Below, one piece after another: positions 2,557 to 44,297 of a stretch of 64,000 nt of DNA; positions within the stretch are counted from its first letter, which is position 1, and each line of letters starts with the position of its first letter. Source of the stretch: a virus (Duplodnaviria > Caudoviricetes); IMG/VR virus record IMGVR_UViG_3300032007_001727. One strand, 5' to 3'. The notes beneath the pieces were generated by a model. That model worked only from the letters and a program-made list of their open reading frames with translations. It had not been told where the DNA came from and did no database searches. Both the position numbers and the translations under genes were made by a program.

Positions 2557-5500
2557 AAGTTTTAGAGTACATACAAATATATCAAGCGATACCGTCTTGA
2601 ATGTGAACATGAAGCAAGACTTTGACTTCTTGGAGGTCTTGTCATTGAAATTGCGCCAAAAGGATGCATACAGACTGCATTCGTCCAATTATGGCGTAAT
2701 AGTGGGAAGGGTGTTGGCAAACGAGGCATTCGGAATTCCGAACGCAAAGGTGTCCGTGTTCATAGAGAAAGAGTCCGATGATACTACGGATATGGAGTCA
2801 ATTTATCCTTATTATGAGGTAACGTCGAAGGACAAGGAGGGTCGCAGATATAACCTACTTCCGGATGAGAGTGATGATAAGTGCTATAAGGTTGTAGGAA
2901 CATTCCCGAGCAAAAGATTGGTGTTGGATGACAACGTCCAACTTGAAATATATGATAAGTATTGGAAATACACGACAGTCACCAATAATTCCGGTGACTA
3001 TATGTTGTATGGGGTTCCTACCGGTACCTTGACAATCCATGTTGACTTGGACTTGTCCGACATAGGCGTATTGTCACAGAAACCGCGAGACTTTGAATAT
3101 AAGGGCTATAACATAACAATGTTTGACAGCCCGAACCAATTCAAGGACGGGACCAATTTGGACGGATTGGCACAGTTATTTGCACAGAATAAGAGTGTGT
3201 ATGTATACCCGTTTTGGGGTGATTCCGATAACGGGACCGCTGCAATAACACGTTCAGATATTGAAATCCAATATAAGTTCGAGCCAACTTGCGTGTTTAT
3301 GGGTTCGATTGTATCAGACAACGAGGGCCATGCAATAGGACACAAGTGTTCCCCGGATATCGAGAACGGTATCAACTCACAGTTAATAGGCGGTAACGGA
3401 ACCATTGAAATGATTCGTAAGACCACGGACGGACTTGTAGAGGAATTTCAGATACAAGGAAATCAACTTATCGATGAAAACGGTGTTTGGTGCTATCAGA
3501 TACCGATGAACTTGGATTATATCGGCACGGATGAATATGGCAATATCGTACCTACGGATAACCCGTCAAAGGGTATTCCTACTAGGACTCAAGTTAGGTT
3601 CAGAATAAGCAAGACCGAGACCAATTCTGAGGGGTTCTCTAGACATACCGCAAAGTACTTGGTTCCAATGAACCCTATGTTCAGTGAAGACAGCAATCAA
3701 CCAAAAATCGATTATAACGGCTCTGAAATCGAGAAGATGTACTCTTTCGGTTCATCCACTCCGCTTAGTTGTTTTAGGGACTTGTATTGGAATAATGTGT
3801 ATAGTGTGAAAAACTATATACCGAAGACACAAGTTGCACACCGTGCATATGCCAAGAACTATTGTGCATTGAAGGGTTCAAACTTGGCTGATGACCAAAA
3901 TCCGATACCCTTTAACAAGTTGAATATAAACTTGCCATTCCTCTATATGGTGGTATGTATCATTTACCGTATAATGGTGAAGGTTGTGAAAATGATAAAC
4001 AAGATTATATCCTTCTTGTATTGGTTGGTGTATAAGTGTTGCATAAAGATTTTCAGATGGAAGATATGTCCCTTCAGACCGCTGAGACACTTGTTGGGTG
4101 ACTTGTCTTGTATTACAATGTCAGCCGGTGGTGATGAGGGAAACATCGCCTATTACCCCGGGTGTTCAAAGTCGGCGATGAACGATTCTTCGTGTCCGGA
4201 CGATATGTTGGGAAGTTGCAGAAAGAGCAATGATGACAAGAAACTAATGGATGCCATACAAAGAAATCTTGCATTGGAATTCAAGATTGTAAGATTGGAC
4301 TTGTATCAAGATTGGATTAACGGGTGTCTCTATATGCCTCTATGGTATTGGAAGAAGCGGAAAAAGAGAAAATTCCTAGGTATTACGATAATGAGAGCAA
4401 AAAATCAGTTTTGCTCCGATGAGTCTTTCTACTCTAGGCTTAAGAGTATTGTGACTTGCAATATTGGGTATACCGATACTAATTTGTCGGTTAGTAACAA
4501 TAAGAGCAGTATGCCGGACAGTGAGAAGAGGTGGCACAAGAACAAGAGCGGTAGCGTGAGGTATTATAGGGGCCTAATCAAGCCGGTTGAAAATAATGAC
4601 GGGCTTACCGTATATTACTATAGTGCATTACAAGCAACCACTGATAATGATAACCCGAAACTTGAAATGGTTAGAAGACCGAAGAACTTCAATGCCGTTC
4701 GTCTTTTTGCAACTGACATTATATTATTGGGTAACTTGGACCCACATAACATATACGGCATACCGCAATTCTTTGAATGCTTGCCGTCAACGACGGCTAA
4801 TGTTCCGCCTATTGCCACCATAGAAGAGGATACTAGCGACGGTGAAAATTCATCAAATAATAGCAATGAGGGATTAAACGGAAATGATGAGGATAGCGGA
4901 ACAACCGTTACCACCGGTATGGATTGGAACCATGACGGTGAGAAGCAGAGTCCGAAACTGAAGACCGGTCTTTTCATGGATTTGGAATGTACATATGCCA
5001 ATACTAGGCCAAAGTCTTGCATTAATGTTGAGAGGATGAGTGAACTTGGTGTGTCGTTGGATACCACACATAGGGTTGCATACTCCTCAAATGGTGAATT
5101 GAAGTATGGAGATATTGAAAACGACGGCTTCATAAGCAAGTATGAACTTGATGATATGGAAAACCGGTCAATGTTTGCAACAATGAACCATATCGGATTC
5201 ATACCACAAGAATATCAAGACATGCATGACGGATATGAGACCCAAGTCCGTGACGAGAGGACAAACTACCTCATACCGAAATTCAAATACATATATCCGG
5301 TGGACTTTGACGGAAGGTTGCAGTTGCCAATGTCAATGTATAGGAACGGGTTCCAACAGTCAATGTTTGACGAGAGGGACCAATCCTATGTTACATTTAG
5401 GCTAGGTGCTGAGGAAAATAATGATAAAATTAGAAATAATGAGAATAGGATAAGACATTTCTATATCCAACGCGACGGTGTATATTCAATGCCGTTATAT

Positions 5501-25202: not shown

Positions 25203-25226
25203 GGCAATAACATAGAAGTCGACCCA
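25203..25226 (+). repeat. Solo copy of the cassette terminal inverted repeat
   Basis: GGCAATAACATAGAAGTCGACCCA is 23/24 identical to the IRs at 42704 and 43289. Confidence 0.85.
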
Positions 25227-25247: not shown

Positions 25248-25256
25248 GATATTTAT
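25248..25256 (+). promoter_or_regulatory. Putative phage late promoter motif (G/A/C)ATATTTAT
   Basis: Same motif recurs in sense orientation before genes at 26926, 38776, 40225, 42221, 43375, 53810 and 55551, and on the minus strand at 29586, 50379 and 55511. Confidence 0.5.
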
Positions 25257-25291: not shown

Positions 25292-25513
25292 ATGAAAAGA
25301 AGAATTAGATTGACAGAGTCAGACCTTCACAGAATCGTGAAAGAATCTGTTAATAGAGTGTTGATGGAAGTTAGTGCTTTTCCGAACAAAGAAGAAAAGG
25401 AATTGTACCAAAAATTCGCAAATGGTGAGATTACCTACGCTCAATTACGGAAAGCATTGGTAAAAGCAGGATGTGAGGACGTAGGAAATTGGGATTTTCA
25501 ATGGGGAGATTAA
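25292..25513 (+). CDS. Small protein with IRLTESDLH leader
   Basis: MKRRIRLTESDLHRIVKESVNRVLME. Confidence 0.75.
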   Translation: MKRRIRLTESDLHRIVKESVNRVLMEVSAFPNKEEKELYQKFANGEITYAQLRKALVKAGCEDVGNWDFQWGD

Positions 25514-27849: not shown

Positions 27850-29544
27850 TTATTGTTCAACCTTTGTCCAATTATAATAACCTAGGTAATAAGTACCCGT
27901 TCCCATCCAAGTGTTATAGCCGCTGCTACCGCTTTGAATTGTTAGAGTACCACCGGTCTTAATATCATAGAATGTATAATCATATATTGTTGGTGCTGTT
28001 GTGGCAAGTGAAGTTATTGCCGATAAACTAGAACATCTACTGAAAACACCACCACCAATGCTTGTGACACCATTCGGTATTGTTATGCTTGTTAAACTAG
28101 AACAAAATTCGAAAGCACTATTACCAATACTTGTAACACCACTACCAATATAGCAAGTTGTCATGGCAGTACAGTTATAGAAAGCCCGTTCACCAATACT
28201 TGTAACACTGTCCGGAATTGTTATGGTTGATAAACTACGACAACCATAGAAAGCACTACCACCAATACTTGTAACACTGTCCGGAATTGTTATGCTTGTT
28301 AAACTATAACAACAATTGAAAGCACTATTACCAATACTTGTAACAGTATTTGGTATTACAGTTGTATTACAACCTTTTATTAAAGTGTTTGTGCTTGTTT
28401 GAATAATTGCATTACAGTTGTTTCTTGAGTCATAGGTTGCATTTGCAGCATCAACTGTTATACTTGATAGACTAGAACAATAAAGGAAAGCATTAGTAAT
28501 AATGCTTGTAACACCGCTACCAAGCGTACAAGTTGTTAAACCGGAACAACCTAGGAAAGTGTTCTCACCAATACTTGTAACACCATTTGGAATTGTTATG
28601 CTTGTTAAACTAAAACAACTAGTGAAAGCATTACCACCAATGCTTGTAACACCACTTGGAATGTTTATACTTGTTAAACATTGACAATTTTCAAAAGCAG
28701 CATAACCAATACTTGTAACACTGTCCGGAATTGTTATACTTGTTAAACTATAACAATCACCGAAAGCCCCATAACTAATGCTTGTAACACCACTTGGAAT
28801 GTTTATACTTGTTAAACCGGTACAACCATTGAAAGCATAATCACTAATGCTTGTAATACCATTTGGAATAAATGCTGCATCAGAACCCTTTATCAAGGTA
28901 TTTGTGGCAGTTTCAATGACTGCATTACAATTATTTCTTGAATCATATACGGGGTTTGCAGCGTCAACTTCCACGTCTGATAACCCACAGTACTCCATTG
29001 TGAAAACTTGGTTTATATTTGTTACGCCACTTCCGATGTATAAGGTTCTAATTCCGTAACACTCACTAAAAGCACTTCCGCTTATGCTTGCGACACTGTT
29101 TGAGATAACAAGGGTTTGAAGTAAACCACAAGTGTAGTCAATTTTAAACGAATCTTCTTCAGATTCAATACAAGAACCTTCCCAAGCATTATATAAGTCA
29201 CCAATGCTTGTACATAAATCGCCACAAACAATTGATGATATGCAAGTTCCGGTTACTTCTTCCGTTTCTTGGTCTTCCACATAAGATAAATAAGGAAGAA
29301 TCATACATTGTGTCAGTTCTCCGCTTCCTTGTAACTCAACCTCAGTTGGTTCGCCAACCAAGCCATCATTATCATAATCTTGCACGGTTAACTTAACAAA
29401 GAAAGGTGGGGGGGGGGGTGGAACATCCGGATTGTAGTGCATAGCACCATCGGCCACAACATAACTTACGTTTGGCTTCGGATAATCTGTGGCAACGTAT
29501 GCTGTATAATCAGCGGCAGTTGCAAATTCTTTAACATACTTCAT
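27850..29544 (-). CDS. BspA-type (LRR_5/TpLRR) leucine-rich-repeat protein with poly-C11 tract (in frame)
   Basis: Many 23-aa repeats LTSITIPDSVTSIGxxAFxxC; YDSRNNCNA insertions; MKYVKEF N-terminus; PPPPPP encoded over the C11 tract. Confidence 0.85.
   Translation of the reverse strand: MKYVKEFATAADYTAYVATDYPKPNVSYVVADGAMHYNPDVPPPPPPFFVKLTVQDYDNDGLVGEPTEVELQGSGELTQCMILPYLSYVEDQETEEVTGTCISSIVCGDLCTSIGDLYNAWEGSCIESEEDSFKIDYTCGLLQTLVISNSVASISGSAFSECYGIRTLYIGSGVTNINQVFTMEYCGLSDVEVDAANPVYDSRNNCNAVIETATNTLIKGSDAAFIPNGITSISDYAFNGCTGLTSINIPSGVTSISYGAFGDCYSLTSITIPDSVTSIGYAAFENCQCLTSINIPSGVTSIGGNAFTSCFSLTSITIPNGVTSIGENTFLGCSGLTTCTLGSGVTSIITNAFLYCSSLSSITVDAANATYDSRNNCNAIIQTSTNTLIKGCNTTVIPNTVTSIGNSAFNCCYSLTSITIPDSVTSIGGSAFYGCRSLSTITIPDSVTSIGERAFYNCTAMTTCYIGSGVTSIGNSAFEFCSSLTSITIPNGVTSIGGGVFSRCSSLSAITSLATTAPTIYDYTFYDIKTGGTLTIQSGSSGYNTWMGTGTYYLGYYNWTKVEQ
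29408..29418 (-). repeat. Homopolymer G11 (C11 on coding strand)
   Basis: Direct count of the G run; coding frame intact. Confidence 0.85.
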
Positions 29545-39184: not shown

Positions 39185-39745
39185 ATGAGTGAAAATAGTA
39201 TAACAAAGAAGATGCTCAACACCTTGAGGGAGGGCAGATACGCAAAGGAAATATCCGCCTCAAAGAATTTCCCGAAGGGTAAGGTTGAAGAGAATGATAA
39301 CTTCTTGAGAAGGAGCATAGCATTGATGGAAGAGGCCGTAGATAAAAAAAAAGTCTTGACGGAAGACAGTGACGGTGACAGTGATAGTTTTGTCATTTCA
39401 AAGGATACGCCACAATTCGGGGATATTGTCTCTTCACAAAGGGAAATGATTAAGAAGACAGTCAATGACAACGTGGAGTTCAAGGAAAACGCGCTAAAGT
39501 ATTATCCACATGAAAACGACATGACATTGGATGCCTCCATCCCTTCGCTTAACCTTAGTTTCCGGTTTAGGTATAACGACACGTCCACGGGGTGCTATAT
39601 ATGGTGCAACCAAACGGTATTGGACGATGAAAATACTAGAACAATAGGAAAAATAAGGGATGCATATGTTAATTGGAGAAATTCCATTACCGCTGAGGAT
39701 GACCTAATGGCTAAACTTAAACAAGCCGCAACAAAGAATGGTTAA
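39185..39745 (+). CDS. Hypothetical protein
   Basis: 186-aa ORF in operon. Confidence 0.65.
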   Translation: MSENSITKKMLNTLREGRYAKEISASKNFPKGKVEENDNFLRRSIALMEEAVDKKKVLTEDSDGDSDSFVISKDTPQFGDIVSSQREMIKKTVNDNVEFKENALKYYPHENDMTLDASIPSLNLSFRFRYNDTSTGCYIWCNQTVLDDENTRTIGKIRDAYVNWRNSITAEDDLMAKLKQAATKNG

Positions 39746-39923
39746 GCATTGGACAACAAGCCTATTTATTGAGGAAGCCAAAGCCATACACGGTGACAAG
39801 TACGACTATTCAAAAGCAAAATATGAGAAGAAAAAAACCAAAGTCTGTATAGTATGCCCCAAACATGGCGAATTTTGGCAAACGCCGGATGCCCAATTAA
39901 TAAAAAAAATTAAGTTAAAATGA
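39738..39923 (+). pseudogene. Truncated homing endonuclease remnant (single zinc-ribbon repeat, no nuclease domain)
   Basis: HGDKYDYSK...CPKHGEFWQTP followed by an abrupt end. Confidence 0.65.
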
Positions 39924-42564: not shown

Positions 42565-42711
42565 ATGATAGACTATGAAGCAAATGCGGAAACCATCAAG
42601 AGAGTTGAAGAAATAAATGATAAACTTGAGCAAGAGAATGATGGTAAAAAAAGGACAAAGTTAATGTTTGAGCAATTATTAAGGGGTCTATACCTTAATA
42701 ATTGGCAATAA
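42565..42711 (+). CDS. Small 48-aa protein whose 3' end is overwritten by the cassette insertion (not in ORF track)
   Basis: MIDYEANAETIKRVEEINDKLEQENDGKKRTKLMFEQLLRGLYLNNWQ*; stop codon lies inside the left IR. Confidence 0.5.
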   Translation: MIDYEANAETIKRVEEINDKLEQENDGKKRTKLMFEQLLRGLYLNNWQ

Positions 42712-43320
42712 CATAGAAGTTGACCCACAATAATTTATTAGAAAAAGTATGTATAGAATATGAATAAAAAACTTATAAGATTAACAGAAAGTGACCTTCA
42801 TAGTATCGTTAGAAAAGCGGTAAACAAAATCATTAGAGAATCACGAGGATATGTTCCTCATGATGGAAACGGAATGGTTGGAGGTTCTTGGGGTAGTAGA
42901 ACATTATCTGCCACATATTATTTATACAAATATATAGATGATGCTTTATATTATGCCGGTGCATTTGAAAATGAAGAAGAAGGCAACAAAATTGATGAAT
43001 TTATTAAACGTTGTGATTCAAAAGGCATTTTCAATGTAAAAGTAGATGTTGTAGAATCGTATGACAATTCAGTTGGAATTGATTATGATGCAGAAATAGA
43101 AAATATTGATTATGATGCAATTGATAGGGCTGAAGAGGTACTAAAAAATTTACCAACAAAAAATCTAAAATTCAAGAATGCGGCTTTGAATGGCCTTAAA
43201 ACAGGAGTTGATAGACTTGAATCAGATGAATCAGTTATCGAAGATTTAGATATTGATTATGACGAATACTAGTATTAGTAAAACATTTTGGGTCAACTTC
43301 TATGTTATTGCCTAATAATT
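42696..43320. mobile_element. Non-autonomous IR-bounded gene cassette (IS1595-like ends) with 8-bp target-site duplication
   Basis: TAATAATT (42696-42703) + IR GGCAATAACATAGAAGTTGACCCA (42704-42727) ... TGGGTCAACTTCTATGTTATTGCC (43289-43312) + TAATAATT (43313-43320); no transposase inside. Confidence 0.9.
42760..43272 (+). CDS. IRLTESDLH-leader acidic protein, passenger of the cassette
   Basis: MNKKLIRLTESDLHSIVRKAVNKIIRES; the only ORF between the IRs. Confidence 0.8.
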   Translation: MNKKLIRLTESDLHSIVRKAVNKIIRESRGYVPHDGNGMVGGSWGSRTLSATYYLYKYIDDALYYAGAFENEEEGNKIDEFIKRCDSKGIFNVKVDVVESYDNSVGIDYDAEIENIDYDAIDRAEEVLKNLPTKNLKFKNAALNGLKTGVDRLESDESVIEDLDIDYDEY

Positions 43321-43478
43321 TCCCTTTAACTTAACTATTTTTGTTGTTTTTCACAAAAAATTGAAAGTATTCTACTATTTATTATTAAAAATAACATAAT
43401 AATTTTTCAACACTGTGAAAGGTGGGAAGTTCGTGTTCCCATAACAGTATTGGACTTAAAAGAAAAGATTATTAAACA

Positions 43479-44297
43479 ATGGAAGTAATTAAGATTAATG
43501 TCGGTGAACTCAGAAAGGTTATTTCTGAGGCTTCTGAATTTAAACCGGTGATGTTTGGTCACGAGGAAAGTAAGAAGATTAACGATAAGTCATATGCTGA
43601 TACAACAAAGGAGACTAGCAAGTATGACGGAGGTCTTTCCAAGCCATCAAAGAAACTTGGTGGCGGTATTTCTGCAACCGATAACAGAGGTATGCACGAT
43701 TTGGAATTTGACAATATAAACAAGCCATATAAGGACAAAGTAAAATCCCAAATGAAGGGATATGTGTCCAAGGATGCGGAAGACAAGCACAAGAATGATG
43801 AGTTCGGAAATGCAACCTTTGACAATGAAGGAAATATCTACAAGGCCGCAAAGGAGCATGCAAAGGCAGTAAAGCAAGGTAAAGACACTGCCGCAGAAAT
43901 GGGGTTAACCGGCCGTGAACTTAATAAAAATGACATTGAAAAAAATACAGAGACAATGGAAGAATCCAAGAAGATAAAAATGTTGTCCTTCAAGAATACC
44001 AAATTTATTTCTGAGGGTCACATGATTTCGATGATACCGGATGAATACAAGACAGAAGGTCGCAAGTTCATAATGAAAGACAGCGCTAGCAACGAGTACC
44101 TTGTGGAATGGACCGACAAGGAACCAAATGTTAAGAAGAAAATCAATATGAACTTGGTGAATGAGGAGAAGAATAGGATAAAGGAACTTTGGGGATACAA
44201 GAGTCCGGAGGCAAACACATCAACTTCTAAATTCAGACTTAAGGAGGACAAGGATTTTGTCAATATGATTAATAAGGCAAGAAAACTTATGGACTAA
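43479..44297 (+). CDS. Hypothetical protein (possible head-associated protein)
   Basis: MEVIKINVGELRKVISE leader-like start; CTATTTAT motif upstream. Confidence 0.55.
   Translation: MEVIKINVGELRKVISEASEFKPVMFGHEESKKINDKSYADTTKETSKYDGGLSKPSKKLGGGISATDNRGMHDLEFDNINKPYKDKVKSQMKGYVSKDAEDKHKNDEFGNATFDNEGNIYKAAKEHAKAVKQGKDTAAEMGLTGRELNKNDIEKNTETMEESKKIKMLSFKNTKFISEGHMISMIPDEYKTEGRKFIMKDSASNEYLVEWTDKEPNVKKKINMNLVNEEKNRIKELWGYKSPEANTSTSKFRLKEDKDFVNMINKARKLMD

Follow-up and report, generated by a model that had tools for sequence, protein, structure and literature searches.

A jumbo-phage cassette interpreted as a mobile insertion cassette derived from an IS1595-family insertion sequence of rumen Prevotella

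A 609-bp segment of a rumen jumbo phage genome, at positions 42704-43312 of the window (the whole 64,000-nucleotide stretch of DNA analysed here), is best interpreted as a mobile insertion cassette, namely a non-autonomous, internal-deletion derivative of a "transporter" insertion sequence (IS) of the IS1595 family from rumen Prevotella; we assign a probability of about 0.9 to this reading. The segment has the ends of a cognate IS, contains no transposase, carries a passenger coding sequence and is flanked by a target-site duplication (TSD), while the corresponding site is empty in related phages. The first-pass annotation had proposed a transposase-less passenger-gene element derived from the IS1595 family, a proposal now sustained by the finding of the same ends around IS1595 transposases and by a graded deletion series. 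The class to which the element belongs is already known; particular to this case are the jumbo phage replicon, a cargo of a phage gene family with a phage promoter that is found also in host-chromosomal copies, the chimeric composition of the elements, and a complete series from autonomous IS to minimal cassette across the host and several phages.

Structure of the Cassette

The cassette is delimited by two terminal inverted repeats (TIRs, or arms) of 24 bp: the left one, GGCAATAACATAGAAGTTGACCCA, lies at 42704..42727 on the plus strand, and the right one, its exact reverse complement, at 43289..43312 on the minus strand, leaving 561 bp between them. Two matching copies of the 8-bp sequence TAATAATT are found immediately outside the arms, at 42696..42703 and 43313..43320; the perfect 24-bp repeats and 8-bp duplication described in the first-pass annotation are exact over 42696-43320, with one base-perfect pair of each. 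A chance origin of the ends was rejected, since the window contains three copies of the 24-mer at up to 3 mismatches, against 0.00 expected from 100 shuffles, and the chance of a perfect 8-mer match at the focal TSD spacing is about 5e-5 in the window. Both arms are identical at 24 of 24 positions to both ends of the bacterial locus L038 and to one end each of L036, L057 and L071. The ends of the cassette family begin with GGCAATA; GGCnnTG is the end sequence of ISPna2, an ISfinder subgroup.

Inside the left arm lies a candidate promoter motif, TAATTTAT-TAGAAAAAG (42731..42747, plus strand, with TAATTTAT itself at 42731-42738), which is a shortened variant of a family motif, GATATTTAT..RAAAAATA. 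It is followed by the passenger gene (42760..43272, plus strand), which starts with MNKKLIRLTESDLH and encodes a protein of 170 aa composed of a leader helix (MNKKLIRLTESDLHSIV...), a Gly-rich linker and an alpha/beta domain. This gene is the only open reading frame (ORF) of at least 45 aa in the element and takes up 84% of its length, in agreement with the earlier description of a unit holding only a promoter-like motif and the leader gene. The insertion hit the 3' end of a small phage gene of 48 aa (42565..42711, plus strand), whose frame now enters the left arm. A nucleotide search of the cassette region against 50,697 phage records gave zero matches.

A further copy of the end, with one mismatch, stands alone at 25203..25226 on the plus strand, and a search for its partner arm at up to 8 mismatches returned nothing beyond chance. 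It is located 66 bp upstream of a 73-aa leader gene (25292..25513, plus strand), which is preceded by GATATTTAT at 25248 and whose N-terminus is the same as that of the cassette gene; arm, promoter and leader at this locus are 75% identical to the L004 cassette described below, and we regard it as a second, decayed cassette.

Elements with the Same Ends

IMG/VR was scanned with the 24-mer and with a degenerate form of it, yielding 11 viral contigs, and a scan of bacterial genomes yielded 30 contigs, nearly all from rumen Prevotella or Prevotellaceae assemblies; one of these is the isolate Prevotella sp. tc2-28. On viral contigs, every plus copy of the end with a minus copy no more than a few kb away shows the same 8 bp on the outer side of both arms. 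Such duplications surround L004 (648 bp, TTTTATTT), L007 (660 bp, ATTATTTA), which lies in G001, a complete 401-kb relative of the focal phage (CheckV 100%), L008 (532 bp, AATTTTTA), L009 (441 bp, TTTATTTT) and L010 (707 bp, TATTTATT). Longer elements are L012 (2,599 bp, AAAATTAA) in contig G005, L031 (1,607 bp, TTTATTAT), which unites two apparent solo arms of G002, and L071 (2,770 bp, TAAATATT), in a 300-kb, jumbo-phage-like contig of 35% GC. Clear pairs are also present in five bacterial loci (L036, L038, L052, L054 and L057), every one with a perfect duplication.

The search for other inverted-repeat pairs with TSDs, suggested in the first-pass annotation, has therefore brought 14 more, 13 of them with perfect 8-bp duplications; counting the focal one, the duplication is perfect in 14 of 15 pairs. 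A or T occupies 111 of the 112 target bases in the 14 pairs counted, and the duplicated sequence varies from pair to pair, save for AAAATTAA, which is common to L012 and L036. These two were considered as a possible single locus, and this was rejected, since their flanks are unrelated; they are hence independent insertions. The exception among the 15 is L066, where the arms are perfect and the flanks agree at only 5 of 8 positions, suggesting that some copies have been rearranged or moved by recombination.

Transposase and Deletion Series

The long elements, of 2.0-2.8 kb, encode a protein of 325-332 aa. The one at L012:2319-3317 matches PF12762 (DDE_Tnp_IS1595) with an E-value of 2.8e-44 over profile positions 3-153 of 153, PF12760 (zinc ribbon) with an E-value of 2.8e-08 over residues 23-69, and NF033547, "IS1595 family transposase", with 193.5 bits against a cut-off of 75. 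Its homologs in L036, L038, L052, L054 and L071 are 84-86% identical; more widely, homologs number in the thousands, the close ones being named by NCBI "IS1595 family transposase [Prevotella sp.]". On these profile matches, the autonomous partners of the cassette can be assigned to the IS1595 family. The DDE transposase of this family with matching ends, which the first reading had indicated as something to look for, occurs on Prevotella chromosomes, on a phage contig of Prevotella and on the 300-kb jumbo-phage-like contig. The 24-bp ends of these autonomous partners have 0-2 mismatches, and the 8-bp duplication is perfect at all six intact copies.

The host copies sit in DNA of 45-56% GC, beside genes for a SusC-type TonB-dependent receptor, an S46 peptidase and a NAD-dependent epimerase, which indicates that they are chromosomal. 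The autonomous copy L012 is instead on a phage contig, G005, with genes for a terminase large subunit, a RecT-like protein, a helicase and a reverse transcriptase, and the flanks of L071 contain dense small ORFs, more leader genes and an LRR_5 protein resembling those of the window. One window protein of this type (27850-29544, minus strand) is 564 aa long and consists of BspA/LRR_5-type repeats (ITIPxSVTSIGxxAF); with over 40 matches to its DNA in G001, at 65-73% identity, it belongs to a large multi-copy gene family of these phages. In G005 the autonomous IS directly adjoins a GmrSD-type type IV restriction gene (PF03235 and PF07510), which is followed by a second large ORF (L012 4868-6802 and 6750-9386).

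The elements form a deletion series. The transposase is intact in L012, L036, L038, L052, L054 and L071; about 90 residues are missing internally in L057; a 69-aa in-frame stump, with the first ~20 residues fused to the last ~50, is left in L031; only the last 33 codons, starting 7 bp from the arm, persist in L008; and no trace of the gene is found in the window, L004, L007, L009, L010 and L066. In every element retaining both genes, the leader gene is convergent with the transposase gene; thus, the focal arm at 43289-43312, behind the stop codon of the passenger gene, corresponds to the transposase-proximal end of the autonomous copies, the transposase gene being wholly deleted, and the arm before the promoter to the distal end. 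A convergent, low-GC passenger gene bearing the MNKKLIRLTESDLH leader is present in five of the six intact copies. In some autonomous copies the leader occurs mid-frame in a longer ORF of 286-325 aa (L012 3318-4268, L036 6321-7262, L054 1237-2097 and L071 6982-7959), where a domain upstream may be fused to the leader gene or read through into it.

The autonomous elements are also heterogeneous in base composition: the transposase gene has 41-47% GC and the rest, including the cargo, 30-36%, a chimeric pattern that fits a host IS having picked up phage genes. No IS1595 transposase was found in the window (tblastn, best E 0.74), nor in the complete genome G001, so that movement of the cassette would depend on a copy elsewhere. 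Lytic phage genomes seldom contain insertion sequences; an IS1595-like transposase was detected in 6 of 50,697 phage records, with a highest identity of at most 38% and no close relative among them.

Related Phages and Empty Sites

Copies of the focal cassette that are 94-96% identical are found at three different sites on three phage contigs. In the alignment of the three (the window, L007 of G001 and L066), whose mean column identity is 94% with flanks counted in, similarity extends exactly from the outer GGC of one arm to the outer GCC of the opposite arm, between unrelated flanks. The window cassette is 96% identical to the G001 copy over 581 bp, whereas the alignable backbone of the two phages has a mean identity of 69%; the genes neighbouring the cassette in the window map about 58 kb away from the G001 copy, with 66% nucleotide and 40-55% amino-acid identity. 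Cassette copies number one or two per phage.

In four closer relatives (L026, L027, L029 and L030) the site is unoccupied and the arms are absent: the homolog of 42565..42711 is followed, after about 10-20 bp, by the homolog of 43479..44297, which has 69-78% amino-acid identity, and the target TAATAATT has a single equivalent. The small protein interrupted by the insertion ends in ...LYINQF(N) in these relatives and in ...LYLNNWQ in the window, where it runs into the arm; in-silico removal of the cassette and of one copy of the duplication gives ...LYLNNFPLT*, bringing back the conserved Phe codon. The search for empty sites called for in the first-pass annotation was therefore successful, with four unoccupied phages and an in-silico excision that restores the conserved C-terminus of the hit gene. 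The exact rebuilt empty junction had no match in viral and metagenome contigs; the left flank itself is absent from both collections, meaning that the strain lies outside them, and this negative search is thus uninformative. G001 was tried as an empty-site reference and rejected, since its syntenic site holds a different gene and its backbone has about 50% amino-acid identity; the gene at that site (L021 766-1020, at ~177,983-178,237 of G001) encodes 84 aa, has no arms, and bears a looser leader, MKISENKLKKIVRESIDNV.

Other features were observed around these sites. At the junction hit in the window, the relative L028 has a different insertion of about 880 bp (3112-4001), with two tandem homologs of the window gene 39738..39923, which makes the junction an apparent hot spot of gene gain. 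In the window, 158 bp (43321-43478) separate the right duplication from the next gene, compared with the ~10-20 bp of the relatives, and this stretch carries another copy of the promoter-like motif, TACTATTTATTATTAAAAATAAC. In G001 a 14-nt fragment identical to positions 2-14 of an arm variant (GCAATAACATCGA) is found 9 bp before the left arm of the cassette (L007 457-470, ~236,679-236,692 of G001) and may be a relic of an earlier insertion there. The same genome contains degenerate arm-like 24-mers at 83297-83320 and 90789-90812, with 4 and 5 mismatches, respectively; a leader gene at 90,900 lies about 110 bp downstream of the second, which is probably what remains of an old, decayed cassette.

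Passenger Protein, Leader Family and Promoter Motif

The 170-aa protein matches no Pfam or NCBIfam family, those of transposases included; a hit to HopBF1, considered as an identity for the payload, was discarded as noise (15 bits against a cut-off of 200). AlphaFold2 gave a mean pLDDT of 78, with values above 90 for most of residues 50-160, and predicted a low-confidence N-terminal helix at residues 10-28 and, after a flexible Gly-rich linker, a confident alpha/beta domain; fold searches of PDB, BFVD and the ESM Atlas brought no match, all TM-scores being below 0.5. Eleven homologs of the protein were identified; the gene is without arms in L063 and has eroded arms in L064 and L065, and an armless phage gene may be the ancestral state of the payload. 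A weak hit to an I-HmuI NUMOD-like homing endonuclease was noted at L064 1059-1892, ~1 kb from the decayed cassette copy with one gene between.

The leader, with IRLTE at residues 6-10, is shared with many other genes. Six leader genes are present in the window, only two of them with arms and four outside cassettes; G001 gave 13 leader hits, against 0 with a reversed-motif control, one being in the intact cassette, one behind a decayed arm and the remaining 11 outside cassettes. Among the 27 leader proteins collected, the sequences beyond residue 30 form 23 unrelated clusters. These unrelated bodies and the mostly armless genes indicate that the leader is a module of a larger phage gene family, some members of which are carried by the IS.

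The motif GATATTTAT..RAAAAATA is located about 35-45 nt upstream of most leader genes, including those of host-chromosomal IS copies. It is also found ~40 nt upstream of the tail sheath gene in L032, and this makes the ATATTTAT motif a candidate promoter, probably of the late class. With respect to the G001 and L066 copies, the focal cassette has lost 50 bp, including a hairpin upstream of the motif and the motif's initial bases, so that TAATTTAT-TAGAAAAAG is left; this deletion could have weakened expression of the focal copy.

Comparison with Known Systems

Transposase-less units bounded by inverted repeats and containing passenger genes are defined as mobile insertion cassettes (MICs) in PMC3129680, which cites De Palmenaer 2004; examples are MIC231 of IS231 from Bacillus cereus and the qnrD and qnrS2 MICs (PMC3913671, PMC5444012). 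The focal cassette shares with them the inverted repeats of a cognate IS, the lack of a transposase, one or few passenger genes and the target duplication; MICs are mobilised in trans, as the focal cassette would be. It differs from the MICs named in that its cognate IS belongs to the IS1595 family, its replicon is a lytic-type jumbo phage and the gene it carries is of phage type, with a phage promoter motif that is probably late, instead of one for resistance or metabolism.

ISs with passenger genes are called "transporter ISs", a category which, according to the part of PMC3129680 that refers to Siguier, Gagnevin and Chandler 2009, was first drawn for the IS1595 family. The autonomous copies described here correspond to this category, with a zinc-ribbon and DDE transposase, TIRs, 8-bp duplications and internal passenger genes; they are peculiar for combining a host-like transposase gene with a phage-like cargo, both on chromosomes and on phage DNA, whereas the focal element has lost the transposase.

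Miniature elements in viral genomes (vMITEs) have been catalogued and used for host assignment, 17 viral sequences being newly given to Prevotella (PMC11602168). Like the focal cassette, vMITEs are non-autonomous derivatives of host transposons in viral genomes and can link a virus to its host. MITEs are small and mostly non-coding; the focal element, conversely, contains an expressed-looking gene with its own promoter, and its family also occurs in autonomous form on phage DNA. Its classification as a MITE was rejected, since the 170-aa ORF fills 84% of the 609 bp and has a confident predicted fold.

Two phage systems offer further parallels. The T4 internal proteins (IPI, IPII, IPIII and Alt) carry a capsid-targeting sequence, and the gp21 prohead protease cuts at I/L-x-E sites. 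As in the leader family, unrelated bodies follow a short, conserved N-terminal leader, the IRLTE of the leader contains an I/L-x-E as found in gp21 cut sites, and a gp21-type prohead protease is encoded by G001 (PF03420, 79 bits); unlike in T4, conservation of the leader continues for ~15 residues past the putative cut site. By this analogy, a capsid-targeted role of the cassette protein, similar to that of T4 internal proteins, is possible; to our knowledge, T4 internal protein genes are not carried on transposons. MPME1 and MPME2 are very small mobile elements of mycobacteriophages, bounded by inverted repeats, with one small ORF, scattered among related phages and, like the focal cassette, defined by occupied versus empty sites; we know of no cognate DDE transposase or host-chromosomal autonomous copy for them, whereas the full IS1595 parent and the deletion intermediates have been found for the cassette.

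Proposed Origin and Alternative Explanations

The preferred reading starts from a parent IS of 2.0-2.8 kb, native to rumen Prevotella, with 24-bp ends GGCAATAACAT...GACCCA and a gene for a zinc-ribbon and DDE transposase, host-like in GC. Deletion of this gene would have left two ends around a promoter and a leader gene, and nothing more; a cognate transposase acting in trans would then have inserted this unit at the A/T-only sequence TAATAATT, in the last codons of the 48-aa gene, duplicating 8 bp of the target. The transposase could have come from a chromosomal copy in the host or from a co-infecting phage with an intact copy; this mobilisation in trans by the cognate enzyme is inferred. The cassette gene would probably be transcribed from its own phage-type promoter, presumably late in infection. 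At the sequence level, the view is supported that elements of this family transfer small genes of phage type between several phages and the chromosome of the host.

Two extensions of this reading deserve less credit. The first-pass annotation had proposed that such cassettes serve as a system for diversifying putative virion-packaged effectors; the low copy number and the location of most leader genes outside cassettes make this weakly supported. It is also rather unlikely that IS1595 elements and cassettes act as a two-way shuttle of capsid-targeted late proteins between Prevotella chromosomes and jumbo phages. If they did, host copies would keep the phage late promoter so that the cargo is made during infection only, the leader would load the protein into progeny heads, and phage lineages would receive injected "internal proteins" of phages, or saboteurs encoded by the host, by way of the IS.

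Among the explanations that do not involve transposition at this site, the one that survives best is that the cassette arrived by homologous or illegitimate recombination between phages, the arms being passive relics and the element an immobile fossil here. Such a history would account for L066, with the same cassette and perfect arms and a duplication that does not match, for the erosion of arms in place (L064, L065, the left arm of L009 and G001 at 90789) and for the presence of one or two copies only in each phage. However, a duplication is not a product of recombination, and the perfect 8-bp duplication and arms of the window copy, its sharp bounds and the single target in relatives are the footprint of transposition; we therefore consider this origin improbable for the focal copy. 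Less probable still is that the 24-mers serve the phage as regulatory elements (operator, promoter or terminator) and lie inverted around a gene by accident. Solo 24-mers are indeed intergenic, often just after terminator-like hairpins and upstream of leader genes, and the copy at 25203 precedes such a gene; this reading is contradicted by the duplications, by transposase genes enclosed between identical 24-mers, by the same ends amid housekeeping genes of bacterial chromosomes and by transposase remnants beside arms. Finally, invertons are common in Bacteroidota and have inverted repeats around a short segment, but an invertase flipping the 561-bp segment between crossover sites (inverton- or shufflon-like) has a negligible probability, given that no site-specific recombinase was seen at any of the 15 elements, that the promoter of the gene lies inside the segment and direct 8-bp duplications outside the repeats, and that the orientation of the leader gene to the transposase-proximal arm is constant in all elements retaining both.

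Significance

Interpreted as a mobile insertion cassette, the focal element belongs to a family that could be recovered as a whole by sequence alone, from autonomous copies through deletion intermediates to gene-carrying cassettes, and that is spread over the host chromosome and phage DNA, the latter comprising a mid-sized Prevotella phage contig and several jumbo phages. At ~0.6 kb and with defined ends, the cassette is a natural, minimal donor that could serve transposon tools in Prevotella and its phages. For uncultured jumbo phages, the shared ends give a concrete host link, to rumen Prevotella, and the contrast between 96% identity of the cassette and ~69% of the backbone points to one route by which small accessory genes pass between diverged phages; if the leader is a capsid-targeting tag, the system would also bear on the way in which phages acquire injected proteins.
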